Shown here: positions 5,047 through 40,182 of the stretch, one piece after another
Numbering within the stretch: position 1 is the stretch's first letter
Layout of the letters: each line of letters opens with the position of its first letter
Assembly (NCBI GenBank): GCA_035533415.1
Contig: DATLTU010000014.1
Coordinates: 1-63,812 of the forward strand
Length of the DNA: 63,812 nt
Direction of reading: 5' to 3'
Source: Candidatus Limnocylindrales bacterium
Lineage (GTDB): Bacteria > Acidobacteriota > Terriglobia > Acidiferrales > UBA7541
Notes under the pieces: model-generated
Told to the model about the DNA's origin: nothing
The model's input: only the letters and a program-made list of their open reading frames with translations
Database searches by the model: none
Position numbers and translations under genes: made by a program

Positions 5047-5062
5047 CGTGATTGTAATCACT
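5047..5062. promoter_or_regulatory. CRP/FNR-like palindrome CGTGA-TTGTAA-TCACT (GTGA-N6-TCAC core)
   Basis: Read directly. It is part of the 14-bp perfect palindrome GTGATTGTAATCAC, in the 430-bp gap between the two ATPase genes and about 300 bp upstream of 5358. Confidence 0.4.
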
Positions 5063-14899: not shown

Positions 14900-14915
14900 G
14901 GTGACCACGGTCACT
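14900..14915. promoter_or_regulatory. CRP/FNR-like palindrome GGTGA-CCACGG-TCACT
   Basis: Read directly. The core GTGACCACGGTCAC is identical to the site at 32008-32021. Confidence 0.4.
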
Positions 14916-15286
14916 AAAGGCGCCGTAAACTGTTTTCAATCCCAGTGCCGTTATTATTCTCTTGAGTGAACAGGACGCATCGCTCTACGCTGTTCGCCGG
15001 TAGGGACCTCGGCAGCCAAGGCGGTCCTTAACCCGCGTGATTCTCGTCACAGATTTCGCCGGCCAAAGCAGATGTTAATCAGGGTGCGTTTTGCTGCAGA
15101 TGCTAGCCGCCGAAAGAAACATGTAAATGCCCAACTCGGGCGGCACATAAGGCAAGCGACCCGTGCCAGGGTCGCATCTTCGATGGCGCCGACAAGACCG
15201 ATTTCGCCAAACGAACCAAACCATGAACAAATTCGCCAACACGTCCTGGATCAGATGGAACGCCAAGGAGAATTAGCAAAAATAAT

Positions 15287-16557: not shown

Positions 16558-16573
16558 TGTGACCTGCGTCACA
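16558..16573. promoter_or_regulatory. Perfect CRP/FNR-type palindrome TGTGA-CCTGCG-TCACA
   Basis: Read directly. It is centred about 111 nt upstream of the ATG at 16677. Confidence 0.55.
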
Positions 16574-16676
16574 TGGTTTAGTGATCCGTTACCTTGCTGG
16601 CCGTACCTCATTCATTCAAAATGTCTAGCAGTATGACAAACATGATAAATTGTTATCGATAAGGGAGGTTATCATC

Positions 16677-17438: not shown

Positions 17439-17490
17439 CCCTTCCGGTGCAAGAACGGAAGAACCAATCGTTCGGATCGAGGCCGTCACA

Positions 17491-18861: not shown

Positions 18862-18968
18862 ATTCCCGTTTGAATTCATCGGGTGCCGTGATCTTCAAAA
18901 TCCAAACCCACGGCGAGCCCTCGGATCGAACGCTCGGGCCTGGGATTTGAGAAAGGCGGCTTGCGGAA

Positions 18969-19748
18969 ATGATGCCAAAACACGGAGAAATCAAAATGCG
19001 GGCGCGCGCGGTGGCTTTTGATCTGGCAATCTTGGGAGTTGCGGCGGCCCTGTCCGTAGGTACCGCAATGGCAGCTCATCGTCGAGCCTCGGCTGCCGAT
19101 TCACCTGCCACGGGCCAGATCACGGGCAAAATCTACTTCAAGGGAGTCAAGCCGAAGCTGGCGCGGATCAATATGGGCAAGGATCCCGTATGCGTGTCGG
19201 AGCATTCGGGAACCGTGTACGCGCAGGACGGCGCGGTGAACAGCGACGGAACCCTCCCCAACGCGTTCGTCTACATCAAGCAGGGCAGCGTAAATCTGGC
19301 GCGGCCCGCACCGCGCAACTCGGTGGATCTAACGCAAAAAGGTTGCATGTACGAGCCCCACGTTCTCGGCATCATGGTGGGCCAGCCGCTTCAGGTTCTT
19401 ACCCTGGATCCCACGACTCATAACATCCATGTAGTCGCAAAAATCAATCGTGAATGGAATGTCACGCAGCAGCCGGGTTCACCCTCCGCCATTCGCCGGT
19501 TCACGCATCCGGAGGTCATGATTCCGGTGCATTGCAACGAACATCCGTGGATGAAGGCGTACATCGGAGTGGTCGATAATCCCTTCTACGCAGTCACCGG
19601 CGGCGGCGGAAGTTTTGCCCTCAAGGATGTGCCGCCGGGCGACTACACCTTGGCGGTGTGGACCGCAACCTTCGGAACGCAGGAACAGAAGGTCGTCGTG
19701 CGGCCCGGCGAAATAGCAACCGTCAGCTTCACGTTTGTGAGCCGCTAA
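18969..19748 (+). CDS. Secreted cupredoxin / CarboxypepD_reg fusion, paralog 2
   Basis: 259 aa. Motifs: 'QKGCMYEPHVLGIMVGQPLQVLTLDPTTHNIHV', 'HCNEHPWMKAY' (C-x2-H-x2-M), 'GSFALKDVPPGDYTLAVW'. The start could instead be the ATG at 18996. Confidence 0.75.
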   Translation: MMPKHGEIKMRARAVAFDLAILGVAAALSVGTAMAAHRRASAADSPATGQITGKIYFKGVKPKLARINMGKDPVCVSEHSGTVYAQDGAVNSDGTLPNAFVYIKQGSVNLARPAPRNSVDLTQKGCMYEPHVLGIMVGQPLQVLTLDPTTHNIHVVAKINREWNVTQQPGSPSAIRRFTHPEVMIPVHCNEHPWMKAYIGVVDNPFYAVTGGGGSFALKDVPPGDYTLAVWTATFGTQEQKVVVRPGEIATVSFTFVSR

Positions 19749-19874
19749 CACGCATGAGTGCCAGCTTAATCGCGGGCACATCGCTTGCCCCGCCCATCTG
19801 GTCAATGCCGCGAAGGCGCTAGCCCGATGCTTGGCTCCGCCGTTTCCGGGGCAACCAGCGGCGGCGAGTCAAAT

Positions 19875-22430: not shown

Positions 22431-22482
22431 CCGCCCATGTGAGAGCGAGCCGGTGCGATTTTTGAAAAAGGGGGAAATTACA

Positions 22483-24876
22483 ATGCCTTCTCATGATGCA
22501 GGGCAGGTTCACGCGTCCGTCGGCCCGATCCCCGAGGAAGAGCTCCGCAAAATGGACGCCTACTGGCGCGCCGCGAATTATCTTTCCGTCGGACAGATTT
22601 ATCTCCTCGATAACCCCCTGCTCCACGAGCGGCTGAAGATTGAGCACATTAAGCCGCGCCTGCTGGGTCACTGGGGCACGACGCCGGGACTGAACTTCAT
22701 TTATGTGCATTTCAATCGCCTCATCAAAAAACTTGATCTGAACGTCATTTACATCACTGGCCCGGGACACGGCGGTCCTGGTCTCGTCGCGAATGCGTAC
22801 CTCGAAGGCACCTACAGTGAGTTCTATCCGAACATTCCGCAGACTGCGGATGGCATGAAGCATCTATTCAAACAGTTTTCGTTCCCCGGAGGCATTCCGA
22901 GCCACGTCGCACCCGAAACGCCGGGTTCAATTCACGAAGGCGGCGAACTGGGCTATTCCATCGCGCATGCTTACGGCGCCGCATTCGATAATCCCGACCT
23001 GCTGGTTTGCTGCGTGGTCGGCGACGGTGAAGCGGAGACCGGGCCGCTGGCCGCCAGCTGGCACTCCAATAAATTCTTGAACCCGGCTCGCGACGGAGCT
23101 GTTCTTCCCGTTCTCCATTTGAATGGTTACAAAATCGCGAATCCAACCGTGCTCGGGCGCATGAACGATGATGAGTTGTCTCATCTCTTCCGGGGATACG
23201 GTTACAACCCCTACTTCGTCGAAGGGCATGTGCCTGAAGCCATGCATCAACTCATGGCGCGCACGCTCGATACCATTGTCGATGAAATCGGGGCCATTCA
23301 GCGCGGCGCCCGCGATGGGCGTGCGGCCGGCCTCCCTGTCTGGCCCATGATCATTTTGCGAACGCCAAAGGGGTGGACCGGACCGAAAATAGTCGACGGA
23401 AAACCCGTGGAAAACACTTGGCGCGCCCATCAGGTTCCCGTTACGGATCTCGCGTCGCGGCCGGACCATTTGAAAATCTTGGAAGATTGGATGAAGAGCT
23501 ACCGGGCAGAAGAGCTCTTTGACCGGCGGGGCAAATTAGTTCAGGAGCTGGCCGAGCTCGCCCCGAAGGGCGACCGCCGCATGGGGGCAAATCCGCATGC
23601 GAATGGCGGGTTGCTGCTCAAGGACCTCGTGATGCCCGACTTTCGCGAATATGCAGTGACCGTGCCGAAGCCCGGCGGCCAAGTTGCGGAAGCCACACGA
23701 ATTCTCGGCACCTTCCTCCGCGACCTCATGAAACTGAACTCGGATGAGAAGAATTTCCGGGTTTTTGGACCGGACGAAACGGCCTCAAACCGGCTCGAGG
23801 CTCTCTACGAGGCCACTTCCAAAGTCTTTATGGAGCGGATTCTGCCCACCGACGAGAACCTCTCTCTTGAGGGCCGCGTGATGGAAGTGCTCAGCGAGCA
23901 CATGTGCCAGGGATGGCTCGAAGGCTATCTGTTGACCGGCCGTCACGGTTTCTTCTCCTGCTACGAAGCCTTCATTCACATCGTGGACTCGATGTTCAAC
24001 CAGCACGCAAAATGGCTGAAGGTCACGCGCCGGATACCCTGGCGTCGCCCGATTGCCTCGCTAAACTATCTGCTGACCTCGCATGTTTGGCGCCAGGATC
24101 ACAATGGTTTTAGCCACCAGGACCCCGGCTTCATCGACCACGTCATGAACAAGAAAGCGGATGTCGTGCGCGTCTATCTGCCTCCTGATGCGAACACACT
24201 GCTCTCCGTGGCGGATCACTGCCTTCGTAGCCGTAACTACGTCAACGTTATTGTTGCTGGGAAGCAGCCGGCTCTGCAATGGCTCGACATGGAATCTGCG
24301 ATCGAACATTGCACGAACGGACTCGGGATTTGGGAGTGGGCCAGCACGGATGACGGAAGTGAGCCGGATGTCGTGATGGCCTGCGCTGGGGATATTCCCA
24401 CACTGGAAACCTTAGCAGCCGTGGATCTCTTGCGGACCCATTTCCCAGATATCAAGATCCGTCTCGTAAACGTAGTGGATCTGATGACCTTGCAACCTCA
24501 GAGCGAACATCCTCACGGGATTTCCGATCCAGAGTTCGATTCCATGTTCACAGCCGATAAGCCCATCATCTTCGCTTACCATGGCTATCCGTGGCTGATT
24601 CATCGCCTGACGTATCGACGGACGAATCACGATAATCTGCACGTGCGCGGCTATAAGGAAGAAGGCACGACGACAACTCCATTTGACATGGCTGTATTAA
24701 ATGATCTGGACCGCTTCCATCTGGCCGGAGATGTCGTCGACCGCGTGCCGCGTCTGCGGGAAGTCGGGGCGCATTTCAAACAGTTTCTGCGCAACAAGCT
24801 GGTCGAGCATCGGCAATACATTGTCCGATACGGCGACGACATGCCGGAGATCCGCGACTGGAAATGGCCCTACTGA
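22483..24876 (+). CDS. xfp: Phosphoketolase (xylulose-5-P/fructose-6-P)
   Basis: '[17 protein letters not shown]', '[13 protein letters not shown]' and '[10 protein letters not shown]' are phosphoketolase signatures. About 797 aa. Confidence 0.95.
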
Positions 24877-24879
24877 ACG

Positions 24880-26085
24880 ATGAAAATACTCATTCTCAAT
24901 TCCGGTTCCAGCAGCCAGAAGAGCAGTTTATACGACATCGAGGGCCCTCTTCCGGCGCGTCCGCCAAGTCCGGTATGGGAAGCCAGGATCGAATGGGATG
25001 GTCGCACGGCGGAGATTCAGGTGAAGGCCCAAAAAGGCGCCACGTTTCATAGCCGCGTAAAAATTGATTCCCGGCACCAGGCGCTAGAGCAGATGTTTCG
25101 CTCGCTCTGGGAAAGCGACGTTCGCGCGGTCGAGAAGCCCTCGGAAATCCACGTCGTAGGTCATCGGATTGTTCACGGCGGTCGCCGATTCGAAGAGCCG
25201 GTCATCATTACCGCCGAAGTGAAACGCGCCATAGCAAGCGCTTCTGCATTTGCGCCTCTTCACAATCGAGTTGAACTCGAAGGTATCGCGATCATCGAAG
25301 AACTTCTGGGGACGGTTCCTCAGGTCGCGGTCTTCGATACCGCCTTTCATCATAGTCTTCCCTTCGCGGCGGCTGTGTATCCCGGACCCTATGAATGGTT
25401 GGCGCAGGGGATTCGGCGGTACGGCTTTCATGGCATCAACCATCAATACTGTGCCGAGCGCGCGGCGCAACTGCTAGGAAAGCCCCTTACTTCTCTCAGG
25501 CTTGTTTCGTGTCATCTTGGAAATGGTTGTTCGCTTGCAGCCATTGACGGTGGCCGCAGTGTCGACACGACTATGGGGTTCACTCCTCTGGATGGATTGA
25601 TGATGGGCACGCGCTCGGGATCGGTCGATCCGAGCATTCTGACTTACCTGATGCGAGAAAAACGAATCGACGCAGGCCGAGTCGATGAGATTCTCAATAA
25701 CGAGTCCGGCCTCCTCGGCATTTCGGGAGTTTCGAGCGACATGCGCAAGATCTTGGAGGCCATGAACTCGGGGAATGACAGGGCAGAACTGGCCTTTGCT
25801 ATCTTCGTCCATCGTCTCCGGTCCGGCATCGGGTCCATGGTTGCCGCACTCGGCGGTCTGGATGCTCTGATTTTCACGGCGGGAATTGGCGAGAATGCAG
25901 CCGCTGTTCGAGAAGCCGCCTGCGCGCGCTTCAGCCATCTTGGCCTAACGCTGGATGCGGTCAAAAACAGTCAGTCGCCGGTTGATCAAGACATCGCCGA
26001 GCGCGATTCATCCGTGCGCGTGCTGGTCATCCATGCCGAGGAGGATTGGGCTATCGCTCGGGAATGTTGGACGATGACTCAGTAA
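24880..26085 (+). CDS. ackA: Acetate kinase
   Basis: 401 aa. Motifs: 'ILILNSGSSSQK', 'GHRIVHGG', 'RYGFHGINHQY', 'FTAGIGEN'. It begins 4 nt after the xfp stop. Confidence 0.95.
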   Translation: MKILILNSGSSSQKSSLYDIEGPLPARPPSPVWEARIEWDGRTAEIQVKAQKGATFHSRVKIDSRHQALEQMFRSLWESDVRAVEKPSEIHVVGHRIVHGGRRFEEPVIITAEVKRAIASASAFAPLHNRVELEGIAIIEELLGTVPQVAVFDTAFHHSLPFAAAVYPGPYEWLAQGIRRYGFHGINHQYCAERAAQLLGKPLTSLRLVSCHLGNGCSLAAIDGGRSVDTTMGFTPLDGLMMGTRSGSVDPSILTYLMREKRIDAGRVDEILNNESGLLGISGVSSDMRKILEAMNSGNDRAELAFAIFVHRLRSGIGSMVAALGGLDALIFTAGIGENAAAVREAACARFSHLGLTLDAVKNSQSPVDQDIAERDSSVRVLVIHAEEDWAIARECWTMTQ

Positions 26086-28605: not shown

Positions 28606-29538
28606 ATGAGTACAGCGACCAACGCAGCAGCAGTCAAGGTCACGCCGGCCAGTCGCATAGATGCCGACCATCAAGTTTCGCTCTCCAACATTCTTGTCGC
28701 CACGGACTTCTCTCCCTCATCGGAAACAGCCCTCGGTTACGCGCTCGCGATTGCGCGGCGTTACGAATCGCACGTCTATGTCGCGCACGTCATCCTCCCT
28801 AGCGCCTATCAGTTCGGTGCTCCCGAAGCGATTGAGCCAACATACGATTTGGTGCGCCGGCACGCCGAAGAAGAGATGGCCACGCTGCTCGTCTCAGGCC
28901 GGCTGCGGAGCGTCGTCCATGAAGTTTTGCTGGAAGAGGGCCTGCTCTGGCCCACGCTCGCCAGTATGATTCAGGACCACTCGATTCAGCTCGTGGTCAT
29001 CGGCACCCATGGCCGCACTGGGGCTAGGAAGTTGCTCCTTGGCTCAGCCGCGGAAGAAATTTTCCGCCTGGCCGATGTCCCGGTGATGACCGTTGGCCCG
29101 CAAGTGAAAACCGAGCCGCCGCAAGAAGTCAAACTCAAACGCATCCTCTACGCGACCGACTTCACCGCGAAAGGCGAACGCGCCGCCGCCTATGCTCTCT
29201 CCCTCGCGCAGGAACACCAAGCGGAGTTGACGCTCCTGCACGTCATCGAAAACGGGGACGGCGTATCGTCCAAGAACATCTCGGCGCTGCGCGCGGTGTT
29301 CCTGAAGCGTCTCGATGCGATTGTGCCCCCGGAAGCAAGGTCGTGGTGCGATCCCGCGTGCGTCGTGACCGTGGGGAATTCTGCCGATGAGATTCTTGCC
29401 GTGGCCCGCGCACGCGCGTCGGACTTGATCGTTCTCGGCGTGCGCCATGCTACGGGGTTCGCGGGTCACATTCTCGCGAGCCGCGCCTACAAGGTTGTTT
29501 GCCAGTCGGAGTGCCCCGTGCTCACGGTCCGTGGCTAG
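28606..29538 (+). CDS. Tandem universal stress protein (2x UspA domain)
   Basis: 310 aa. Motifs: 'ILVATDFS', 'IGTHGRTGARKLLLGSAAEEI', second domain 'ILYATDFT...LGVRHATGFAGHILASRAYKV'. Confidence 0.85.
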   Translation: MSTATNAAAVKVTPASRIDADHQVSLSNILVATDFSPSSETALGYALAIARRYESHVYVAHVILPSAYQFGAPEAIEPTYDLVRRHAEEEMATLLVSGRLRSVVHEVLLEEGLLWPTLASMIQDHSIQLVVIGTHGRTGARKLLLGSAAEEIFRLADVPVMTVGPQVKTEPPQEVKLKRILYATDFTAKGERAAAYALSLAQEHQAELTLLHVIENGDGVSSKNISALRAVFLKRLDAIVPPEARSWCDPACVVTVGNSADEILAVARARASDLIVLGVRHATGFAGHILASRAYKVVCQSECPVLTVRG

Positions 29539-29634
29539 CGAAGCCAGCGGCGAAGGTTCGTTCCTGGGGCGCGGCAGGCAATACGCAACACGATTCTTCG
29601 GAGACGCTTTCTCTGTTGTTCGGGAGGAAAGCAA

Positions 29635-30150
29635 GTGAAAGAACAACACATAGTCCGCCAATCCGTCATGGGTCCCACGCCCGTGAAGCTGCTGAAATTT
29701 GAAGAACTCTCCGCCCAAATCGGGGAAATCCGCTGCGCGACAGAACGCCATGCCGTTGCATCCAGTGACCGCGCACGCCGATGGAATCTCGAGGATTGGA
29801 TTCAGGCCGAATTCAAATTCCTGCATCCCGCGCCTTGTGAAGTGACAGCATCGAACGGCGCGATCACCGTTCGCGCCGAGGTTTCCGACTTCAGCGCGGA
29901 AGACCTCAAGGTTAGTGTCGAGCCTTCGCGCGTGGCCATCGTCGGAAAGAAACAACCTGCGAAGGAGCGCGGAGACGAAGCAAAACGCTCAGCCGAATTC
30001 CGCCCCCGCCGCCTGCTCCGCGTTCTTGTCCTCCCGGCGGAAGTAGATCCGGCGAAAGCACAGGCAGTGGTCAAGAACGGCATTCTTGAGGTCATCATGC
30101 CAAAGGTTGCCGCGACCCCGAAAGTGGAGCGTAAATCCAGGGCTGCATAA
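29635..30150 (+). CDS. DUF2934-like N-terminus fused to an Hsp20/alpha-crystallin domain
   Basis: GTG start with RBS GGGAGGAAAG. 'ARRWNLEDWIQAE' matches the DUF2934 'DWL.AE' motif. 'ITVRAEVSDFSAEDLKVSVEPSRVAIVGKK...VVKNGILEVIMPK' is an ACD. Confidence 0.65.
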   Translation: MKEQHIVRQSVMGPTPVKLLKFEELSAQIGEIRCATERHAVASSDRARRWNLEDWIQAEFKFLHPAPCEVTASNGAITVRAEVSDFSAEDLKVSVEPSRVAIVGKKQPAKERGDEAKRSAEFRPRRLLRVLVLPAEVDPAKAQAVVKNGILEVIMPKVAATPKVERKSRAA

Positions 30151-30325
30151 GACTGCCGCATGAAACACCGAGCGAAAGCCCCGCAGCCACACGGGCAAAC
30201 TACCGAACTCTGAATAAGTTTCGGGTGCTATTGATCAAGCAAGCAAGAAGGACAGAGAGACAGTCGGCAGAATCAAGTTGGGTATTTCCGCGCGATCTGC
30301 CGGCATTCCTTCGCGGAGGGTGCCT

Positions 30326-31117
30326 ATGAAATCAAAAAAAGTAATCCCTATCACCAGACGCTGGTGGCCGAGGATGCTCGTGTTTGGATTTGGCATGTTC
30401 CTGGTTGCTGGTTTTCTCTTTTTCGGCGCTCATGCAGCCAGAGAGCAATCGGCGCGGGTATCTGCCGCCACCGGTTCCATCGTCGGAACAGTAAAGCTCC
30501 TCGGCCTACCTCCAGCGCCTCAAGTGATCAACATGAGCTTCGACCCCGTTTGCGCGTCGGCCCATAAGAAGCCCGTGTATACGCAGGAAGTGAAACTGGG
30601 GCCGAATGACGCGCTCGAAAATGTCGTTGTGTTCTTGAGTTCAGGACTTCGCAATACTGCATTCGTGCCGCCCTCGCGTCCTGCCGTGCTCGACCAAAGG
30701 GGATGCATGTTCGAACCGCACGTCTTGGCGGTCATGGTCGGCCAAAAACTGGAAATTCTCAATAGCGACAAAACGCCTCACGGCATCCACGTCCTGGCGC
30801 GCAATAACGAGCAATGGAATCAATTTCAACCCGTTGGCGGCCCGCCCATCGTGACAGCTTTTTCCCACCCCGAGGTGGCCGTTCCCGTGATCTGTTCGTG
30901 GCACCCGCTTCACTTTTGGATGAAAGCCTACGTCGCTGTTCTTAGCGACCCGCATTTTCAGGTCACGGGGCGCGACGGCAGTTTTGCCTTGGAGGGCTTG
31001 CGACGGGGGACGTACACGATCGAGGCGTGGCAGGAGAAGTACGGCATCCTAAAGAGGCAAGTTACGGTTCGCCCGGGACAAACTACCACCCTGGATTTTG
31101 TCTTTAAGGCCGACTAG
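30326..31117 (+). CDS. Cupredoxin / CarboxypepD_reg fusion, paralog 3 (variant copper loop)
   Basis: RBS GGAGGG. The N-terminus 'ITRRWWPRMLVFGFGMFLVAGFLFF' is a possible Tat-like signal or anchor. Motifs: 'QRGCMFEPHVLAVMVGQKLEILNSDKTPHGIHV', 'ICSWHPLHFWMKAY' (the loop is extended by PLH), 'GSFALEGLRRGTYTIEAW'. Confidence 0.75.
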   Translation: MKSKKVIPITRRWWPRMLVFGFGMFLVAGFLFFGAHAAREQSARVSAATGSIVGTVKLLGLPPAPQVINMSFDPVCASAHKKPVYTQEVKLGPNDALENVVVFLSSGLRNTAFVPPSRPAVLDQRGCMFEPHVLAVMVGQKLEILNSDKTPHGIHVLARNNEQWNQFQPVGGPPIVTAFSHPEVAVPVICSWHPLHFWMKAYVAVLSDPHFQVTGRDGSFALEGLRRGTYTIEAWQEKYGILKRQVTVRPGQTTTLDFVFKAD

Positions 31118-31267
31118 CTCCTTTGATTCGCCATTACAATGCCCTGCGTGAAATGGCGCGGCTTCCTGTCGCAACGGCTTGAGAGCGAAACGGCAAGCGA
31201 AACTCCCATCCTTCACCCGAACGGAATTGGCGTCCCTGCCGACGCCTTTTCAGAATATGATAGACAT

Positions 31268-31627
31268 TTGAAGAGAGCATCTATCTTTCTGGTGAGTCTT
31301 GTGCTGGCGGCCTTGCTGTCCGCTTGCGGCCGGGATCTCTCCAAGGAATCCGACGCTGAATTGGGTCTAAGTGCCCAGCAAAGCAACGGCCGGCGCATTT
31401 TTCAGCTCTATTGTGCTTCCTGCCACAACGCATATTCTTCCAGTGGTTCGAATGGGCCGGCCATGAAGGGAGTGTTCAAAAGTAAATATCTGCCGAGCGG
31501 CCTGCCCGCCAACGATCGGTTTGTGAAGCAGGCGATCGTGAATGGCCGCGGGATGATGCCCGCGTTTGGCGAGTCCCTCGGCCCGCAACAGGTTGATGAT
31601 CTGATCGCCTATCTGCACAGCCTGTAG
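31268..31627 (+). CDS. Monoheme class-I cytochrome c lipoprotein
   Basis: The TTG at 31268 gives (M)KRASIFLVSLVLAALLSACG (lipobox). It has 'CASCHN' and a distal Met in 'GRGMMPAF'. The track's longer N-terminus has no signal-like logic. Confidence 0.7.
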   Translation: MKRASIFLVSLVLAALLSACGRDLSKESDAELGLSAQQSNGRRIFQLYCASCHNAYSSSGSNGPAMKGVFKSKYLPSGLPANDRFVKQAIVNGRGMMPAFGESLGPQQVDDLIAYLHSL

Positions 31628-31865: not shown

Positions 31866-31881
31866 TGTGATAAGAGTCACG
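31866..31881. promoter_or_regulatory. CRP/FNR-like site TGTGA-TAAGAG-TCACG
   Basis: Read directly, in the 512-bp gap upstream of the decaheme gene. Confidence 0.4.
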
Positions 31882-32006: not shown

Positions 32007-32022
32007 AGTGACCACGGTCACA
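32007..32022. promoter_or_regulatory. CRP/FNR-like site AGTGA-CCACGG-TCACA
   Basis: Read directly. It is centred about 124 nt upstream of the ATG at 32139. Confidence 0.5.
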
Positions 32023-32138: not shown

Positions 32139-33095
32139 ATGGCACGCGCTAAGACATTGGTGATTGCCGCTCTCGCCGTTTTTGCCTTCCTGCTCGTACA
32201 TCAAGCGTCCACGCGGGCGCAGGAAAAGCAACCTCCGGAGACCCGCGCATCGGTGGCGAATTCTTCTTCTCCACCAGCCTCGGCTTCGTCCCGGTATGCC
32301 GGTTCGGATGCCTGCAAGGTTTGCCACGCGGACGAATACGCGAGCTGGGAAAAATCGCCTCACTGGAACACCACGCTGAATACGCGGGGCGGCCCATCCA
32401 AGCAGGGCTGCGAAGCGTGTCATGGCGCGGCGGCCAGCCACGTCGCGGATCCCAGCGACACCTCCAAGCTTTTCCTTTTCGAGAAGGCTTCGGCCAAGCA
32501 AATCAACGCACGCTGCTTGGCGTGCCATGCGTCAGGCACGGAGCACATGCACGCGATCAATTCCTTGCATGCTCGGAATGGCGTGTCCTGCACATCGTGT
32601 CACTCGCCGCACCACGCCAAGGAAGCGCGGTTCCTGCTCGTTCAGCGCCAGCCAGAGCTTTGCTATTCCTGCCACTTGCAACAGAGGGCGCAGTTCGCGA
32701 TGCCGTTTCATCACCGCGTGAATGAGGGACTTATACAGTGCACCGATTGCCACAATCCGCACGGCACCGAGCGGCCTCACCAATTGCGCTCGTCGGCCGC
32801 TCAGGATGCGGTCTGTTTTACGTGCCACGCGGACAAACAGGGGCCGTTCGTCTTTGAGCATGAAGTTGTGAAAGTGGAAGGCTGCGAGGCATGTCACGAT
32901 CCGCACGGATCTCCCAACCCGCACCTGCTGAAAGTGAGCAACGTCAACCTCCTCTGCCTGCAGTGCCACACGACGTCGTTCGCGAACGCGCCCGGCGCGC
33001 CTTCTTTCCACAACCAGTCCACTCAATTTCAGGCGTGTACGCTTTGCCATACGCAAATTCACGGCTCGAACTTTGACAAGGATTTTTTCAAATAG
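32139..33095 (+). CDS. Periplasmic decaheme c-type cytochrome, MtrA/DmsE/MtoA/PioA family
   Basis: 318 aa, RBS TAGGAGG, signal peptide. There are exactly ten CxxCH motifs: CKVCH, CEACH, CLACH, CTSCH, CYSCH, CTDCH, CFTCH, CEACH, CLQCH, CTLCH. The C-terminal 'CTLCHTQIHGSNFD' is as in the DmsE family. Confidence 0.85.
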   Translation: MARAKTLVIAALAVFAFLLVHQASTRAQEKQPPETRASVANSSSPPASASSRYAGSDACKVCHADEYASWEKSPHWNTTLNTRGGPSKQGCEACHGAAASHVADPSDTSKLFLFEKASAKQINARCLACHASGTEHMHAINSLHARNGVSCTSCHSPHHAKEARFLLVQRQPELCYSCHLQQRAQFAMPFHHRVNEGLIQCTDCHNPHGTERPHQLRSSAAQDAVCFTCHADKQGPFVFEHEVVKVEGCEACHDPHGSPNPHLLKVSNVNLLCLQCHTTSFANAPGAPSFHNQSTQFQACTLCHTQIHGSNFDKDFFK

Positions 33096-35552
33096 GTGCT
33101 CGACATGAGAATTTCTTGCACTTTCTTGTTGCTGATCGCGTTGGCTCTGATCTCGGCGCCTCTGCTGGCGCAGCAGGACAATTCGGGAGAGACGAAGGGG
33201 GTCCAGTCCGGCGAGTACAATGTTCAACAAACCATCGAGTTCGGCTATCGCGACAGCATGGTCAACGGAAATATCGACAATTACGATACGTTCGAGAATC
33301 TCGGCTCGGGCATGCGCTTGTTTAATTACACCCTGGATATGCGCTCGCGCGACCACAAAGGTTTTCTCTTTGACAACCTAACCCTCAGCAACTTCGGGTA
33401 CGGCGGCGATCCGAACGATGTCACGCGCTTGCATATTTCGAAGAACAAATGGTACGAATTCAACGCCATGTTCCGGCGCGATAAGGATTTCTGGGATTAT
33501 AATCTGCTGGCGAACCCGTTGAATCCGGCGAGCTCGGTTCCGGCCCTTGCGATTGTCAATTCACCGCACGCGATGGATCTCGTCCGCAGAATGCAGGATT
33601 ACAGCCTGACGTTGTTCCCTGAATCACGCTTGCGCTTCCGCCTGGGATATTCGCACAACGTCAATGAAGGTCCGGGATTCACCACGCTCGACGGAGGAAC
33701 AGAACCGCTTCTGGCAGAGACCTATCACTATACGACGAATGCCTACCGCGCGGGTGTGGACTACAGATTCTTTCCCAAGACCACGCTATCCTTCGACGAA
33801 TTACTCACCTATTTCAAGCAGGACAACTCGGTGACCGACCAGAATTTCCCCTTTGTGCTGTCTAACGGTACTCCCGCGGACCTCGGCATCGTGTTCAATA
33901 CCGCAGGTGGCACGCCCTGTGCCGCGCCGATTGCCAATTCGCTCACCACGCCGCCCACCGCAAACGCGGCTTGCAACGGCTACCTTGCGTACAACCGCGT
34001 AGGCCGTCCGCGGGGATCGTTCCCAACCGAGCGGCTCGGTTTTGAGTCGAGCTATTTCAAGAATCTCGAAATGTCCGGCTCGCTGGGCTATAGCAGTGAT
34101 AAGAATTCGACTCTCGATTTCAGCGAAGTCGTGAACGCCTGGACCAGCCGGACCGTCAGCCGGGGAAGCACGCTTGGCGGGCCAGCTGACGCCAAGCGCG
34201 TGTCCGTCACTGCGGACTGGGAGGGTGATTATCGCGTCACTAGCAAGCTTCACATTGTCGATGAATTTCGATACGACAACTGGCGCATTCCCAGCACGTG
34301 GGCCACGGCCGGCACAAACCTGTTTGGGACGCCCCCGCCAGCACCCGGGGATGCCGGATTGTTGCTTCCCATTGCGCAGGTGAATCCGGCGACTTTCGCC
34401 ACGGTTTGCCCCGCGGCTCCGTACAATGGGCCGAACTGTCCGCAGCACTCTTCGGGTTCCGGCGCCGACATAGTGAATCAACTGGTTTCGCAGTTCCTGG
34501 GGCAGAATCTCAAGACGAATACGCTTGAGTTCGAGTACGAAGTCACGCGCCGCATCGACGCGCGCATCGGGTACCTGTACACGGCCCGCACGATTGCCGA
34601 TTTCAGCGCCACCTTTAATACCGGGGTGATCTATTTTCCAGGAGGATCTACTGGAGACGCGGCCAATGATTATCTGGCGGCGCGCGGCGATTGCGCCTTA
34701 GTTTCCGGCGCGCTTCCCTCCGTTTGCACCCTCAACTCAGACGGCTCGATCACGGAAGTCGGCCCCGTGGCGGGCAACGATACATCCCGAAACATCACCA
34801 ATATCCACGAAAATGCCCTCCTCTTGGGCATTTCCGCGCGCCCGGCCGATAAACTGAGGTTGAGCGCCGATTTTATGTTCGGCTACAACGACAATTCATT
34901 CACGCGCATCAGCCCGCGCCAACTGCAAAGTTATAGAATCCACGCGACGTACACTCCAACGCAATGGGCGAGCATTGGCGGCGCGATCGACATCCACGAG
35001 AACCGCGACAATGTGTTTACGGTCGATAATCTCGAACATGACCGGACGTTCAGCCTGGTGACCACGCTGGCTCCCAATCCCCGCTTCTGGGCGGATTTTG
35101 GCTACGATTACACAAACATCTCCACCCAGGCGGAAATTTGCTTTGCTGATCCCGGTTCGACTGTGTTCACCGCGCCGTGCCCCGTTGCCGGCGCCACGGG
35201 TCCGCTCGGCGCGCTTTCGTTTTACAAGAACACGGATCACTTTGTATACGGCGACATGATGTGGAAGCCGGTTAAGCGCGTTACGGCCGCGGTCGGATAC
35301 GCCGGAAGCATCGTGCGCGGCAGCACTCTTTTCATAAATCCGCGGCAGCCCACGGGGCCGCTCGATTTCAATTACCTCAAGCCCAACGTCAGCCTGGCAT
35401 TGGAGATTTACAAGAACACGATATACAAGACGGCATGGGGCTACTACGGGTACAATGATCGCGGCATCGCCAATCCCGTAGGGTTGGCGGCCCTTCCGTT
35501 GCAGGATTTTAACGGAAGCAATGTCACGTTTTCGCTACAGTATTCGTTTTGA
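33096..35552 (+). CDS. Large outer-membrane beta-barrel, MtrB/PioB/MtoB-like partner of the decaheme cytochrome
   Basis: It starts at the nucleotide after the decaheme stop (GTG 33096 or ATG 33105). It is 818 aa (PioB-sized) with signal peptide 'LLLIALALISAPLLAQQ', a Tyr/Gly/Asn/Thr/Asp-rich amphipathic pattern and a C-terminal 'VTFSLQYSF'. Family membership is inferred from context and composition. Confidence 0.65.
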   Translation: MLDMRISCTFLLLIALALISAPLLAQQDNSGETKGVQSGEYNVQQTIEFGYRDSMVNGNIDNYDTFENLGSGMRLFNYTLDMRSRDHKGFLFDNLTLSNFGYGGDPNDVTRLHISKNKWYEFNAMFRRDKDFWDYNLLANPLNPASSVPALAIVNSPHAMDLVRRMQDYSLTLFPESRLRFRLGYSHNVNEGPGFTTLDGGTEPLLAETYHYTTNAYRAGVDYRFFPKTTLSFDELLTYFKQDNSVTDQNFPFVLSNGTPADLGIVFNTAGGTPCAAPIANSLTTPPTANAACNGYLAYNRVGRPRGSFPTERLGFESSYFKNLEMSGSLGYSSDKNSTLDFSEVVNAWTSRTVSRGSTLGGPADAKRVSVTADWEGDYRVTSKLHIVDEFRYDNWRIPSTWATAGTNLFGTPPPAPGDAGLLLPIAQVNPATFATVCPAAPYNGPNCPQHSSGSGADIVNQLVSQFLGQNLKTNTLEFEYEVTRRIDARIGYLYTARTIADFSATFNTGVIYFPGGSTGDAANDYLAARGDCALVSGALPSVCTLNSDGSITEVGPVAGNDTSRNITNIHENALLLGISARPADKLRLSADFMFGYNDNSFTRISPRQLQSYRIHATYTPTQWASIGGAIDIHENRDNVFTVDNLEHDRTFSLVTTLAPNPRFWADFGYDYTNISTQAEICFADPGSTVFTAPCPVAGATGPLGALSFYKNTDHFVYGDMMWKPVKRVTAAVGYAGSIVRGSTLFINPRQPTGPLDFNYLKPNVSLALEIYKNTIYKTAWGYYGYNDRGIANPVGLAALPLQDFNGSNVTFSLQYSF

Positions 35553-35620
35553 AGCGAGGCCGAAATTCGATGGCGCGGTGTGGGATCATTCATAATCGGA
35601 AGCTCAGCAGAGAAAGGCGG

Positions 35621-35968
35621 ATGCAGATGAACTGTCAAATGGCTAAAATTATCCAGAAGGTACTTTTCGCGTGCGCGCTCGTTTTTTTCCTGAACGTATC
35701 CGCGCGAGCCGATGACTCGGCGAGTCTTTATAAAACAAAATGCGCCGTGTGTCATGCCGCCGACGGCAGCGGCAACTGCCTAATGGGGAAGAAATTGGGC
35801 GCGAAGGACCTGCGCTCCGACGAGGTGCAGAAGAAAACTGACGCGGAGTTGACCGCCGTCATAACCGACGGCATGGGCAAGACCATGCCGGCATACAAAG
35901 GTAAGCTGACGGACGCTCAGATCAAGGAGCTCGTCTCCTACATCCGCGAGATTGCCAAAAAGAAGTAA
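35621..35968 (+). CDS. Periplasmic monoheme class-I cytochrome c (MtoD-like position)
   Basis: Signal 'KVLFACALVFFLNVSARA', 'CAVCHAADGSG' and distal Met 'GKTMPAY'. The start is trimmed to ATG 35621. Confidence 0.75.
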   Translation: MQMNCQMAKIIQKVLFACALVFFLNVSARADDSASLYKTKCAVCHAADGSGNCLMGKKLGAKDLRSDEVQKKTDAELTAVITDGMGKTMPAYKGKLTDAQIKELVSYIREIAKKK

Positions 35969-36036
35969 ATCTCCAACGATTCCTTCGCGCCAGATCATTG
36001 CCGCATTCATTCCTGGCGGCGGCATGAGGAGGGTTC

Positions 36037-36654
36037 GTGACCGGATTAACGGGCGTACTGATCGCTCAGATTGTTGTTGCGATCGCATTGGCTTCCATTT
36101 TTTTCATTCGCCCATCCGTCACGGTGAGCCCCACCGGCAAGGTTCTGGCTTTCCTCGGGCTGTGCGTTCTTCCTGCTCTTTCTCTCATCGGCGGAATGAA
36201 CACTCACATCCAGCGCTCGGAGCAAACTCGCTTCTGCATCTCCTGCCACGCCATGGCTCCCTATGGGCGAAGTCTGTATGTCGACGATCCCAGTTACATT
36301 CCCGCCGCGCATTTTCAGAATCACCGAGTCCCGGCGAACAGTGCTTGTTACACCTGCCATGCCGATTACTCGATTTACGGACCCCTGAAGGATAAGCTGC
36401 AAGGTCTCAAACGAATCTACATGCAGTATGTGACGACTCCGCCCAATCCAATTCGGATCCCCGGCGGCTATAACAACAACCAATGCCTGCATTGCCACGA
36501 AGGCGCGCGTGATTTTGAAGAGAATCCCATCCACTCGGCGATCATGAGCACGCTGACATCGAATCAGATGTCCTGCATATCGAGCGGCTGCCACGACACC
36601 ATCCACAACGTCGCGGCGCTGAATCACGTGAAATTCTGGAGTCCTGGCCAATGA
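36037..36654 (+). CDS. Membrane-anchored NapC/NirT/CymA-like multiheme quinol dehydrogenase (3 CxxCH + 1 Cx4CH)
   Basis: GTG start with RBS GAGGAGG. There are two N-terminal hydrophobic segments. Heme motifs: CISCH, CYTCH, CLHCH and 'CISSGCH'. Confidence 0.7.
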   Translation: MTGLTGVLIAQIVVAIALASIFFIRPSVTVSPTGKVLAFLGLCVLPALSLIGGMNTHIQRSEQTRFCISCHAMAPYGRSLYVDDPSYIPAAHFQNHRVPANSACYTCHADYSIYGPLKDKLQGLKRIYMQYVTTPPNPIRIPGGYNNNQCLHCHEGARDFEENPIHSAIMSTLTSNQMSCISSGCHDTIHNVAALNHVKFWSPGQ

Positions 36655-36887
36655 CTTTCCGAAATCTTGGAATCAGGTGGTTTCTTCGAATCTCGAGTGC
36701 TCTGATCATTCTGGGCCTGCTCGTGGAAATCGTGAGTCTTTTGTGGTTCCATCCGCTGTCCTTTGTTCTCTTTGCCTTCGTTGGCGCTACCTTAATCGGC
36801 TCGGGGATTCTGGTCTATCTGGTTTCGCTGGTCCTTGTCGCGACGTCCCCAACCGGCAATGGCGGTCGAATCGGCCCTGTACGCTGA
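36651..36887 (+). CDS. Small 2-TM membrane protein, translationally coupled to the CymA-like gene
   Basis: ATGA overlap at 36651-36654. 78 aa with two clear hydrophobic helices. Confidence 0.5.
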   Translation: MTFRNLGIRWFLRISSALIILGLLVEIVSLLWFHPLSFVLFAFVGATLIGSGILVYLVSLVLVATSPTGNGGRIGPVR

Positions 36888-37071: not shown

Positions 37072-37392
37072 ATGGGCGCTCCCTTGATCGGTATGCCTTT
37101 TCATGCTTTCGTCGTTCTGCTGATCGTCAGCGCGATTGCCGCTGCGATAGTCCATTGGGGTCTCCGTTATCGGCTGTTTCACGGAATGGATGGGTACTTC
37201 GGCCAGTGGATGGTCGCGTGGGTCGGCGCGTGGCTCGGGCCTGCGGTGCTGGGTCATTGGTTTGCGTCCGCCATGGTGGCTCACATCTACATCATTCCCG
37301 CGTTCATTGGCGCTCTTGCCGGCGCGTTTGGCGGAACATTAAACGCTAAGGTGCTGGCGGGCGTGACCTCGCAAAGGGGAATGTCTTTGTAA
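37072..37392 (+). CDS. Small membrane protein, possibly GlsB/YeaQ/YmgE (transglycosylase-associated) family
   Basis: RBS TAGGAGG. 106 aa with Gly/Ala/Trp-rich helices ('VAWVGAWLGPAVLG', 'FIGALAGAFGG'). Confidence 0.4.
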   Translation: MGAPLIGMPFHAFVVLLIVSAIAAAIVHWGLRYRLFHGMDGYFGQWMVAWVGAWLGPAVLGHWFASAMVAHIYIIPAFIGALAGAFGGTLNAKVLAGVTSQRGMSL

Positions 37393-37582
37393 GCATGAGC
37401 CACCTGGTTTTTGGACGTTCACGCTGTGAGCAATTGGCCACGCTCCAGGAGCCGGCCTCGGTGCTCGAACACTCCGCAGTGAAGAAGTGGGCGCTGGATC
37501 GAGCGGGCTACGTGTGGCGATTCTGATTGGCCGGGGCTGACTGGCGCAGTCTGCGCTGACGTTTCGACAAAGGAGGAGTCGC

Positions 37583-38269
37583 ATGATCACTGGCCGGAAC
37601 GCCGAGGCGCAGGTGGTGGAACCGCGGCCCACGGCAGCGCGGCTCGGAACGCATCGGGCAGCGTGGTATCGGCCGGTGAGTTGGCTGTTCGCGCGCCAAG
37701 CGGTACCTGAAGCGGTCGCGACGCGGATCCGCTTCGATGCCAGCCCGGAAGCGGTTTGGACTCGCATCATGTTCTACGAGGAAGTTCCCGGGAATCCGCC
37801 GTTCCTTCTTCGGACGGTGCTGCCCCGCCCCATCCGAACGGAAGGTGACAAGACTCGCATCGGAGCAACGGTGCGCTGCGTATACAAGAGCGGGGATTTA
37901 GTAAAGCGCATCACGGCAGTCGATCCGCCGCATTTCCTGCAATTCGAGGTCGTTGAGCAACGCCTGGGGGTCGAGGCTTGCGTCCTCACGCTTGGGGGTT
38001 CGTACCAAATCCGTAGCTGTGCCAATACAACCGACGTGCTGCTCATCACGAACTATAACGCCTACTTGCGTCCCCGTTTCCTCTGGCGTCCTTTCGAGGC
38101 GTTCCTCGTAAGCCAGCTCCACCGGCACATCCTCCGCGGCGTCAGCGCCGCAATGTCCCCTGGAAATCCAGCCACGCGTCCGGCTGTCGCGGAATCCCTT
38201 AAACCGCGGTGCGCCCCTCCGGGAGGCTTTACATGCACGGTTACGACGCAGTCGTCTTCCCGCCGTTAA
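37583..38269 (+). CDS. SRPBCC (START/polyketide-cyclase-like) superfamily protein
   Basis: RBS AAAGGAGGAG. 'FDASPEAVWTRIMFYEEVPG...VRCVYKSGDLVKRITAVDPPHFLQFEV' has the typical SRPBCC layout. Confidence 0.45.
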   Translation: MITGRNAEAQVVEPRPTAARLGTHRAAWYRPVSWLFARQAVPEAVATRIRFDASPEAVWTRIMFYEEVPGNPPFLLRTVLPRPIRTEGDKTRIGATVRCVYKSGDLVKRITAVDPPHFLQFEVVEQRLGVEACVLTLGGSYQIRSCANTTDVLLITNYNAYLRPRFLWRPFEAFLVSQLHRHILRGVSAAMSPGNPATRPAVAESLKPRCAPPGGFTCTVTTQSSSRR

Positions 38270-38631
38270 TCATCATACGCGCCAGTGTCGCGGCTGTTTG
38301 GCTATATGAGGGGCTATGGTGCAAGATCCTTGGCCGCGTGCAATCGCAAGTGGCCGTGGTAACGGCCGTCCCGCGGCTCGGCCTGCGGTTCGGATGGCCT
38401 TTCCTCAAGGCTCTCGGCATCATGGAAGTCGCCCTCGCCGTGTGGGTGATGGCTGGAATTGCTCCGGGCATTTGCGCGATTGTGCAGACAGCCTTGCTCG
38501 TCGCGCTGAATGCCAATGGACTCCTGTGGGCCCGGCGCATCATCCATGAGCCCGCCGGTATGGTCGTGAAGAACATCGCCTTCCTCGTGCTGGTCTGGGT
38601 GTGCGGCGCGATTCCGGGTGGCCGTCTGTGA
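38233..38631 (+). CDS. DoxX-like family membrane protein
   Basis: ATG 38233 has GGGAGG 6 nt upstream. There are four hydrophobic helices ('[18 protein letters not shown]', '[14 protein letters not shown]'). It overlaps the upstream gene by 37 nt. Confidence 0.45.
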
Positions 38632-39515
38632 TGTCGGAAACAGTCTGGCACGAGGGGCGCTTTGGTTCGTCAAACGGCCCGCACCGCCTGCTCTTTGGGT
38701 GCATGTACGAAGATGCGGAGATTGAGCACGCGGCCTTCCACGGCAAAACCCGCGTGTTTTGCATCGCGTCTGCTGGCGCCACGGCGCTGCGCCTCGCCGA
38801 TGAGCACGAAGTGGTCGCTTGTGACATCAATCCAGCCCAGCTTGCCTACGCCGAGCGCCGCGCCGCCGGCGCCCCGCTCGAGACGGGTGATGCGGAGCGG
38901 GCGATGAATTTCGCGCGGGCTTTCATGCCGCTTATCGGCTGGCGGGCAGAAGTTGTACGCATCTTCCTTGCCCTCTCTGACGTCTCCGAACAGATGGTTT
39001 TCTGGACGAAGCATCTCAACACACTCCGCTTCCGCATGGGCTTCGACGCTCTGATGTCTCCTATGATCCTGCGCGCGGCGTATGCGCCGCGGTTCCTTTC
39101 CTTCCTGCCGCCAAAATTCGGAATGGTGCTCCGCAAGCGCCTGGAACGCGGCTTTGCCACGCATCCAAACGCCGCGAACCCTTACGCGCGGGCGCTCCTT
39201 CTGGGTGAAACAAACCGCGAGCCTCAGCCGAAAATACCTCGCATTCGCTTTGTCCTTGCCGACGCGGCTTCCTACTTGGAGTCGTGTGCTGCCGGCTCCT
39301 TCGATGCGTTCTCTCTCTCCAACATACTTGACGGCGCCGCACCCTCGTATCGCAATCGACTCTCGTGGGCCGTCCGTCGCGCCGCAACGGATGATGCTGT
39401 CGTCGTGCTGCGAAGTTTTGGAGAGCCACCGGCCGAACTGGCCACGAACTGTGCCGGATCGGAGCGCGCCATGCTTTGGGGAACCGTCGATGTGCGTAGC
39501 GCGCAGTCGTTCTGA
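38631..39515 (+). CDS. DUF3419 / BtaA-like SAM-dependent protein (short form)
   Basis: TGATG overlap with the DoxX stop. '[11 protein letters not shown]...[15 protein letters not shown]...[16 protein letters not shown]' mirrors the BtaA N-terminal 'WEDp..D...ItSaGCNaL...avDlNpaQ' pattern. Confidence 0.55.
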
Positions 39516-40166: not shown

Positions 40167-40182
40167 TGTGACGCCCATCACA
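40167..40182. promoter_or_regulatory. Perfect CRP/FNR-type palindrome TGTGA-CGCCCA-TCACA (arms extend to GATGTGA/TCACATC)
   Basis: Read directly. It is centred about 72 nt upstream of the minus-strand start at 40102. Confidence 0.55.

Follow-up and report, generated by a model that had tools for sequence, protein, structure and literature searches.

The window analysed in this study is a stretch of 63,812 nucleotides from an acidobacterial assembly (GCA_035533415.1, contig DATLTU010000014.1, positions 1 to 63,812), and the system in question is an operon at 32139-36887 that very probably encodes a trans-outer-membrane conduit of the MtrAB/MtoAB/PioAB kind. Its core is a decahaem c-type cytochrome followed directly by a large outer-membrane beta-barrel. 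At the superfamily level the barrel groups with MtrB/PioB, but it is not a member of the MtrB/PioB family and forms a distinct subfamily outside the reach of the curated models. An earlier note, made from the sequence alone, had described five open reading frames (ORFs) in this region and compared them to the mto cluster of an Fe(II) oxidiser. All five were recovered as co-directional ORFs on the plus strand, and the four-part content on which the comparison was based (decahaem, barrel, monohaem cytochrome c, and NapC/NirT-family cytochrome) was found in one operon:

32139..33095, plus strand: periplasmic decahaem c-type cytochrome of the MtrA/MtoA/PioA/DmsE family, 318 aa
33096..35552, plus strand: outer-membrane beta-barrel of ~26 strands, divergent member of the MtrB/PioB superfamily, 815-818 aa
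35549..35968, plus strand: periplasmic monohaem class-I cytochrome c (PF13442/PF00034), likely start ATG 35621, ~115 aa
36037..36654, plus strand: inner-membrane NapC/NirT-family multihaem cytochrome (PF03264), 205 aa
36651..36887, plus strand: two-helix membrane protein, 78 aa, translationally coupled to the NapC-like gene by a 4-nt overlap

The decahaem cytochrome and its barrel partner

The decahaem gene has a GGAGGA ribosome-binding site and ends with a TAG stop at 33093-33095. A possible GTG start of the barrel ORF is located at 33096, immediately 3' of this stop, and it would give the zero-nucleotide gap and the 818-aa protein described earlier. In contrast, the public gene call is 815 aa and begins at ATG 33105, with AGGTG 6 nt upstream of that ATG, which leaves a gap of 9 nt. 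The gap is hence 0-9 nt depending on the barrel start, of which ATG 33105 is the probable one. The C-terminus of the barrel reads LQYSF, with the terminal Phe that had been pointed out. A metagenome contig on record encodes an identical barrel protein in the same gene arrangement. The longest form of the monohaem cytochrome ORF, 139 aa from TTG 35549, probably overstates the length of the protein; the call on the twin contig is 132 aa, and a start at ATG 35621 yields a normal signal peptide. The NapC-like gene has an AGGAGG ribosome-binding site before GTG 36037.

The family identity of the decahaem cytochrome was established by several matches. Exactly ten CxxCH motifs were counted between residues 59 and 300, the same number as in the earlier note, and a hydrophobic signal-like segment was read from the N-terminal sequence. 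The search with the DmsE-family model TIGR03508, which had been proposed as a check, returned 263.8 bits against a cut-off of 192.2 and covered model positions 1-257 of 258. The protein also aligned full-length (residues 9-312, E=1.5e-36) with MtrA of the Shewanella baltica Mtr complex (6r2q_A). With Photobacterium MtrA it shared 32% identity, where the ten haem motifs were in register and the ten haem-motif Cys/His, together with further conserved His, were invariant between the two proteins. The decahaem is assigned as a bona fide member of the DmsE/MtrA/MtoA/PioA family.

TIGR03508 takes its name from DmsE, and DmsEF have the same architecture as MtrAB, which would fit a module feeding a dedicated extracellular or periplasmic reductase, for example of dimethyl sulfoxide or iodate, instead of minerals. 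However, no molybdopterin oxidoreductase (dmsAB-like) gene was found within or beside the operon, either in this window or in those related loci that were inspected. A DmsEF-type module was rejected because of this lack of linked reductase genes, and its probability is considered minimal.

The barrel protein was recognised by neither curated MtrB/PioB model at threshold. No match to TIGR03509 was found at E<=10, and the match to PF11854 reached 10.3 bits (E=0.25), under the cut-off of 23. Only sub-threshold PF11854 matches were seen among its relatives, with three among 50 close relatives and four among 53 diverse ones. PDB sequence searches with either the single barrel sequence or the family profile did not find MtrB, and an hhalign comparison of the family profile with the single Photobacterium MtrB sequence gave a probability of 1%. 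The protein had no Pfam family above cut-off, no plug domain, and no haem motif. As a positive control, the mtrC-mtrA-mtrB locus was recovered from Photobacterium sp. DA100, the sole MtrA-like match in the plasmid collection, and Photobacterium MtrB scored 551 bits with TIGR03509. The missing family matches, along with the moderate confidence of the AlphaFold2 model of the barrel (mean pLDDT 69.5, with strands mostly at 80-94 and loops below 50), weigh against a conduit. The missing matches would suit the view that the 815-aa protein has no kinship with MtrB and is simply a large porin or transporter encoded next to a periplasmic decahaem carrier.

The predicted fold argues against that view. 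The AlphaFold2 model, built with 50 homologues, contains 26 long strands with periplasmic turns of 2-5 residues at each even-to-odd junction. When it was compared with the PDB by Foldseek, the top match was MtrB (6r2q_B, E=4.6e-16, TM 0.66/0.54), which leads all other fold matches by six orders of magnitude. The next matches were 22-strand TonB-dependent receptors (E~1e-9, TM 0.3-0.4). The presence of these receptors among the fold matches is a point in favour of a non-conduit porin or transporter, but a TonB-dependent receptor identity was itself rejected on the TM values and the absence of a plug domain and of a Pfam match above cut-off. Of the two outcomes by which the earlier note had proposed to judge the barrel, the match to MtrB/PioB models failed to appear, whereas a large barrel of about 26 strands was predicted, with MtrB as its best fold match.

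Remote homology to MtrB was detected once families of barrels were compared. A scan with the decahaem alignment over one genome per species left 80 loci, from which the large ORF 3' of the decahaem gene was taken. By BLASTP, the downstream ORFs formed three groups that remained unchanged at all thresholds from E<=1e-6 to 1e-20: 48 canonical barrels, 31 barrels of the window type, and two barrels with an embedded CxxCH. The canonical and window-type groups were connected by three weak cross-links, at E 1e-3 to 1e-4 only. An hhalign comparison of 30 window-type with 40 canonical MtrB-type barrels yielded a probability of 99.5%, E=7e-23, and a score of 201.5 over 603 collinear columns. Because beta-barrels can yield spurious profile matches, controls were run with the canonical alignment reversed or block-shuffled, and these reached scores of at most 67 over 25-211 columns. 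The profile signal is therefore not generic barrel periodicity. As judged from these comparisons, homology of the barrel to MtrB appears visible only when alignment is set against alignment.

The pairing of cytochrome and barrel was equally consistent. The decahaem gene adjoined the barrel gene in every locus inspected, and both the adjacency and the tight coupling of the two were invariant across the 31 loci with a window-type barrel. In a neighbour-joining tree of the decahaem cytochromes, which is a distance tree and not a maximum-likelihood one, those paired with non-canonical barrels formed one clade in 84 of 100 bootstraps. Decahaems paired with the window-type barrel alone were recovered in 44 of 100 bootstraps, and the claim made here is therefore limited to the clade that they form jointly with the haem-bearing-barrel type. 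Since the decahaem tree mirrors the barrel families, cytochrome and sheath appear to have diverged together. Taken with the margin of the MtrB fold match, the collinear profile homology far above controls, and the lack of a plug domain or Pfam match above cut-off, these observations largely refute a chance neighbourhood of an unrelated porin and a decahaem carrier, which is left with a very small probability. The adjacency and co-divergence suggest that the barrel would form a sheath around the decahaem cytochrome in the outer membrane.

Identity between the barrel and MtrB is only ~10%, and the barrel exceeds MtrB by ~165 residues and has long extracellular loops. Four Cys pairs (C272/C290, C435/C445, C530/C541, and C679/C692) were invariant among close relatives; across the diverse family, C679 and C692 remained invariant and C272 and C290 nearly so. 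All four pairs sit in long, low-confidence loops at modelled extracellular positions, where they would probably form disulfide-stapled surface loops.

Distribution of the barrel and exchange of inner-membrane modules

The canonical barrels included Photobacterium/Vibrio MtrB and those of Ectothiorhodospira, many Betaproteobacteria, Geobacter, Gemmatimonas, and some Bryobacteraceae and Solibacter. The window-type loci, in contrast, came from Terriglobia, Acidobacteriaceae, Ca. Acidoferrum, Ca. Solibacter, Bryobacterales, Blastocatellaceae, and Pyrinomonadaceae, including the isolate Acidobacterium sp. S8. An exhaustive phmmer search with the barrel collected 1,367 representatives at 50% identity with E<=1e-3, of which 288 were at E<=1e-30. 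Homologues with a named source were labelled "hypothetical protein" and came from Terriglobales, Ca. Acidoferrales/Acidiferrales, and "Acidobacteria bacterium", and nearly all named members of the family belonged to Acidobacteriota. One homologue (P0103) carried the precomputed Pfam tag PF27998.1, which is absent from the Pfam copy used here, and part of the barrel family may by now fall within a Pfam entry of very recent date. Two window-type barrels (loci L076 and L078) occurred in metagenome-assembled genomes (MAGs) labelled 'uncultured Clostridia' and 'uncultured Eubacteriales', where an outer-membrane barrel is unexpected. Mis-binning is suspected in these cases, with a diderm Firmicute or horizontal transfer as the alternatives. 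The third barrel type, with a CxxCH inside the barrel (KCSSCHVV or KCSACHVV; L054:6944-9121 and L061:5440-7299), was found in Aminicenantes and Deltaproteobacteria MAGs. It was nearer to canonical MtrB (hhalign score 145) than to the window-type family (score 72) and probably represents the GSU2204 family.

Across the 31 window-type loci, the core consisted of the decahaem and the barrel, while the genes around it varied. A monohaem cytochrome was located 3' of the barrel in 10 of the 31. The 205-aa NapC-like protein was confined to the nearest relatives of the window locus, and in other loci it was replaced by a pentahaem NapC-like protein of 476-513 aa or by a pair of a Rieske protein and a cytochrome b/c fusion. 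Several loci encoded an extra cytochrome of 11-15 haems (430-730 aa) 3' of the barrel, which could serve as a surface partner. Loci with swapped modules were L003:10860-12878, L085, and L078; L060, L063, L077, and L082; and L075, L079, L080, L081, and L083. In the window itself, the CxxCH count revealed no other multihaem ORF over the 64 kb, and no MtrC/OmcA-like surface cytochrome was found in the operon or the window. The window variant therefore follows the two-component plan of MtoAB and PioAB rather than that of MtrCAB.

Downstream of the barrel, the monohaem class-I cytochrome c, the NapC-like multihaem protein, and the coupled two-helix protein were all found, as described earlier, although two of the names proposed for them required revision. 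The monohaem cytochrome, encoded between the barrel and NapC-like genes, has one CxxCH and matched PF13442 at 53 bits as well as PF00034. Its best PDB relatives were Kuenenia c-552, c6, and CcoP domains. The PDB matches listed (42 at E<=0.01, and the best 60 of 128 at E<=10) were of the c-552, c6, CcoP, or bc1 type, and no MtoD-named entry was among them. The protein is classed as c6/c552-type. The comparison to MtoD holds to the extent that a class-I monohaem cytochrome c is encoded in a conduit operon, where it is at most a functional analogue of MtoD.

For the NapC-like protein, membership of the NapC/NirT family (PF03264, 47.8 bits against a cut-off of 24.1) supports the first half of the label "NapC/CymA-like". 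In contrast, it fell under the equivalog and subfamily models (TIGR02161, 32.3 versus 310.6; NrfH, 30.5 versus 134.2; TorC, 38.9 versus 478) and showed a weak match to NrfH 2j7a. It does not have the four canonical CxxCH motifs and the single N-terminal membrane helix expected of the CymA/NapC-NirT type. Instead, it has three CxxCH motifs and a CX4CH site (SC[IV]SSGCH, here SCISSGCH), invariant in homologues, two N-terminal hydrophobic segments, and a small partner protein. It is not a CymA orthologue. Its homologues number more than 1,200, and those that carry a source name are called NapC/NirT family, NapC, or tetrahaem cytochrome c subunit.

Three of these homologues on long contigs (L086-L088) were chosen without regard to context. 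All three occurred in the arrangement decahaem-barrel-(cytochrome c)-NapC-like-small protein with the 4-nt overlap kept, as was also the case in L002 and L004. The small gene encoded 64-73 aa in these five loci. Its product in the window has two hydrophobic helices, with R13, E26, and H34-P35 invariant in L002 and L004, and matched no family in the NCBIfam and Pfam library scans. Since the NapC-like gene and its small partner were restricted to this operon in all three look-ups, they are presumed to form a quinone-pool module dedicated to the conduit.

Regulation, Cyc2, and the direction of electron flow

In the proposed route, the ten-haem cytochrome would be threaded through the ~26-strand barrel, such that its haem chain spans the outer membrane. 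The soluble periplasmic monohaem cytochrome c would carry electrons between the decahaem and the NapC/NirT-type cytochrome, and the latter, together with its 78-aa membrane partner, would exchange electrons with the quinone pool. As no MtrC/OmcA-type cytochrome is encoded, contact with the extracellular substrate would fall to the outermost haem of the decahaem itself, an arrangement that has also been proposed for MtoAB and PioAB. A CRP/FNR-family regulator would act on two GTGA-N6-TCAC boxes 5' of the operon. The further features that bear on regulation and on the direction of flow are the following:

16650-17438, plus strand: cupredoxin-CarboxypepD_reg protein, 5' neighbour of the Cyc2 gene
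17491-18861, plus strand: Cyc2 homologue, 456 aa, with one haem motif (AVPSFARQT-GLA-CSSCH-TNP-PEL)
18969-19748, plus strand: cupredoxin-CarboxypepD_reg protein, 3' neighbour of the Cyc2 gene
30278..31117, plus strand: membrane-anchored cupredoxin fused to a CarboxypepD_reg-like domain (PF13620), with an H-C-H-M type-1 copper ligand set
31139..31627, plus strand: second monohaem class-I cytochrome c (PF13442/PF00034), with a lipoprotein-like LLSAC signal and a weak lipoprotein signal-sequence match
31867..31880, no strand assigned: CRP/FNR-type palindrome GTGATAAGAGTCAC (GTGA-N6-TCAC), in the 511-nt intergenic region 5' of the decahaem gene
32008..32021, no strand assigned: second CRP/FNR-type palindrome GTGACCACGGTCAC, ~118 nt 5' of the decahaem start
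5026-5039, 5048-5061, 14901-14914, 15037-15050, 16559-16572, 21081-21094, 31867-31880, 32008-32021, and 40168-40181: exact GTGA-N6-TCAC sites of the window

The operator was enriched. Nine exact GTGA-N6-TCAC sites were present in the window, compared with 0.69 expected, and none of 100 shuffles reached nine; eight of the nine were intergenic. One site lies ~90 nt 5' of 16650, the start of the cupredoxin-Cyc2 operon, and others were found 5' of genes for a heavy-metal P-type ATPase, an SBF-family transporter, and a DUF2934 protein. A box near the decahaem start occurred in 12 of 31 window-type loci versus two of 48 canonical loci, and a Crp/FNR-family regulator gene was located directly 5' of the operon in many related loci. 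From their pattern, the window boxes look like one regulon, and a CRP/FNR-family regulator probably controls the conduit operon through the two upstream boxes. In the relative L087 (positions 1-2266), a divergent pair of [NiFe]-hydrogenase small and large subunit genes stands beside the Crp/FNR regulator that precedes the conduit operon. An Rfam scan of the window gave no match, a sigma-70 promoter scan found no site, the terminator-like matches fell inside genes and were uninformative, and a repeat search over 29.5-37.5 kb returned chance-level pairs only.

The suggestion that Cyc2 accompanies the mto-like genes in this window was borne out by the protein at 17491-18861. It agrees with the Cyc2 sequence criteria of Keffer et al. 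(2021), namely AXPXFAR[Q/K][T/Y] before a single CxxCH, PXL after it, and a length of at least 365 aa. The protein also ends in Phe, and it had no Pfam or NCBIfam match. Its gene forms an operon-like trio with the two flanking cupredoxin genes (16650-19748, plus strand), with Cyc2 13 kb 5' of the decahaem operon. In the three cupredoxin paralogues of the window, H168, C206, H209, and M215 were invariant. The cupredoxin domain was not detected by any Pfam cupredoxin model; a structural model of low confidence (pLDDT 57.5 overall, ~70-80 in the domain) had only plastocyanin, pseudoazurin, and amicyanin as top PDB matches. The CarboxypepD_reg-like part of these proteins is C-terminal and of the beta-sandwich type. 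Homologues of the cupredoxins were located directly 3' of the barrel in an Acidobacteriaceae MAG (L064:9160-10065) and a Gemmatimonas MAG (L024:7354-7935), which suggests that this cupredoxin family may be functionally linked with porin-cytochrome pairs. The cytochrome at 31139-31627 belongs to the same BLAST family as the monohaem cytochrome downstream of the barrel. Both this cytochrome and the cupredoxin at 30278-31117 are possible accessory electron carriers.

The earlier note had held that the direction of flow cannot be read from sequence, and the evidence collected here indeed points both ways. Inward flow, where the window variant would take electrons in by Fe(II) or mineral oxidation at low O2, is given an even chance. 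It is favoured by the absence of any other multihaem ORF in the window, by the class-I cytochrome c in the operon, as in mto, by the cupredoxin and second cytochrome c immediately 5' of the operon, and by the cupredoxin-flanked Cyc2, whose operon carries the same operator box. The alternative is that the same conduit runs outwards, from menaquinol through the NapC-like and two-helix proteins, the monohaem cytochrome, and the decahaem to Fe(III), Mn(IV), or humics, which would give cells in acid soil an electron sink when they grow by fermentation or under hypoxia.

A number of observations support such a sink and count against inward flow. NapC/NirT enzymes are quinol dehydrogenases that normally oxidise quinol. 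The CRP/FNR-type boxes and adjacent Crp/FNR regulators, as well as nearby genes for universal stress proteins, Hsp20, phosphoketolase, acetate kinase, and glycogen phosphorylase, fit an anaerobic electron sink, and the 11-15-haem cytochromes 3' of the barrel in related loci point in the same direction. The Ca. Acidoferrales were named for homologues of Fe(III)-reduction genes, and Fe(III) reduction has been attributed to Acidobacterium capsulatum. To our knowledge, there is no cultured Fe(II) oxidiser among Acidobacteriia, of which cultured members have been reported in the literature as Fe(III) reducers. In addition, MtoA and PioA do not form function-specific clades (Baker et al., 2022).

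On the other hand, the outward direction has to contend with the lack of an MtrC/OmcA-like surface reductase in the operon and the window, and with an Fe(II)-oxidase homologue, Cyc2, under the same operator. The carriers nearby are cupredoxins and monohaem cytochromes similar to c-552, c6, and CcoP, which are unusual in outward pathways. Cytochromes of the c-552, c6, and CcoP types are His/Met-ligated and of high potential. Outward flow is accordingly regarded as the less probable direction while still a serious contender, and the remaining probability falls to a bidirectional conduit or another substrate. We lean slightly towards Fe(II) oxidation. The explanation as a whole, a conduit with the proposed route and inward flow, stands at balanced probability. 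A broader and more doubtful proposal holds Terriglobia and Ca. Acidoferrales to be facultative oxidisers of Fe(II) or minerals that have two parallel outer-membrane Fe(II) oxidases, Cyc2 and the MtoAB-like conduit, both of which would feed membrane-anchored cupredoxins and monohaem cytochromes similar to His/Met (c6/c-552) types under one CRP/FNR-type low-oxygen regulon.

The genes at 2582-4927, 13250-14107, 19785-26085, and 28606-30150 encode a plasma-membrane-type H+-efflux P-type ATPase, two tandem-domain universal stress proteins, Hsp20, a glycogen-phosphorylase-like protein, phosphoketolase (Xfp), and acetate kinase. The surroundings of the conduit read like an acid-stress and low-oxygen island. 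At 37072-39515, 3' of the operon, a 106-aa membrane ORF is followed by genes for an SRPBCC/Polyketide_cyc2 protein, a DoxX-family membrane protein, and a DUF3419 methyltransferase-like protein, and this gene order is kept in the relative L087 (8678-11261).

Relation to known systems

Acidobacteriota are dominant in many acid soils, and Terriglobia and Ca. Acidoferrales rank with the most abundant bacteria found in soil. The role of Acidobacteriota in iron cycling has been inferred mostly from hidden Markov model (HMM) matches. Ca. Acidoferrum was named from matches to the domains TIGR03507-9 (Epihov et al., 2021), candidate mtrA and mtrB homologues were listed in Acidobacteria (Eichorst et al., 2018), and PioA/PioB homologues were noted in Acidobacteriota by a network study in 2023. 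Canonical MtrCAB has been described in Acidobacteriia of the Bryobacterales type, with no nearby quinone oxidoreductase (Baker et al., 2022), while Shi and colleagues reported no CymA homologues in Acidobacteria. The literature searched contained no description of the barrel subfamily, of its NapC-like/small-protein module, or of the operator common to the Cyc2 operon.

Current annotation splits the pair, with the decahaem called "DmsE family" and the partner barrel "hypothetical protein". Since the barrel carries no more than this second label, the conduit will go uncalled in pipelines where an MtrB/PioB match beside the decahaem is a condition. HMM-based surveys hence under-call or mis-assign the capacity for extracellular electron transfer in abundant soil Acidobacteriota, and a model for the barrel family would change estimates of this potential in soils. 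If the proposal of two parallel oxidases is true, a capacity for Fe(II) oxidation has consistently been overlooked, or taken for 'Fe(III) reduction' alone, since the barrel is picked up neither by TIGR03509 and PF11854 nor by any survey that builds on them. The operon is also a natural example of inner-membrane module swapping among the NapC-like protein with its small partner, the pentahaem NapC-like protein, and Rieske/cytochrome b. The link among conduit, Cyc2, and cupredoxins through a common operator is testable in Acidobacterium sp. S8, a cultured carrier.

Among characterised systems, the Shewanella MtrCAB complex (6R2Q) provides the structural reference, as the window decahaem aligns with MtrA over its full length and the barrel model is closest to MtrB. 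The window differs in the absence of MtrC/OmcA and in a longer barrel with low identity, four conserved Cys pairs in extracellular loops, and no HMM-level match. Within the same phylum, Group 5 MtrCAB of Acidobacteriia (Bryobacterales; Baker et al., 2022) likewise comprises a decahaem and a barrel. These loci, however, are canonical, with MtrC and a downstream tetrahaem cytochrome and without a nearby quinone oxidoreductase. In the clustering performed here, most Bryobacteraceae and Solibacter loci fell in the canonical barrel family and not in that of the window. For the GSU2203/GSU2204 family (NF041028/NF041027), the window decahaem scored 225 bits with NF041028, below the cut-off of 325, and the barrel showed a 17.8-bit local match to NF041027. 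It differs from the embedded-CxxCH, putatively GSU2204-type barrels in lacking their haem motif.

PioAB of the phototrophic Fe(II) oxidiser Rhodopseudomonas palustris TIE-1 is, like the window pair, a two-component system of decahaem and barrel without a surface cytochrome. The window lacks the long N-terminal extension of the PioA type and the high-potential iron-sulfur protein (HiPIP) PioC, and has a cytochrome c and a cupredoxin instead. PioB was assumed to be a canonical member of the MtrB/PioB model, and it is by this assumption, rather than by sequence, that it is set apart from the window barrel. The rus operon of Acidithiobacillus ferrooxidans (Cyc2-Cyc1-rusticyanin) resembles the Cyc2 and blue-copper operon of the window, which also has class-I cytochromes c nearby. 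This likeness is architectural only, as the window cupredoxins are membrane-anchored and fused to CarboxypepD_reg and no cytochrome oxidase genes are linked.

A close parallel is the MtoA-MtoB-MtoD-CymA cluster of the Fe(II) oxidiser Sideroxydans lithotrophicus ES-1, which shares with the window a decahaem, a large barrel, a monohaem cytochrome c, and a NapC/NirT-type cytochrome. Both are without MtrC, and the window has Cyc2 in the same genome region. The window barrel is of a different subfamily that fails TIGR03509 and PF11854, the monohaem cytochrome is c6/c552-like without detectable similarity to MtoD among the PDB matches listed, and the NapC-like protein departs from Sideroxydans CymA in its three CxxCH motifs plus CX4CH, its two hydrophobic segments, and its coupled 78-aa partner. 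The gene order of the window is A-B-c-NapC, and its host is a member of Acidobacteriota, not Betaproteobacteria. The window operon is, in its working, a counterpart of the Mto cluster, and it is a separate acidobacterial lineage outside the mto and mtr orthologous groups.

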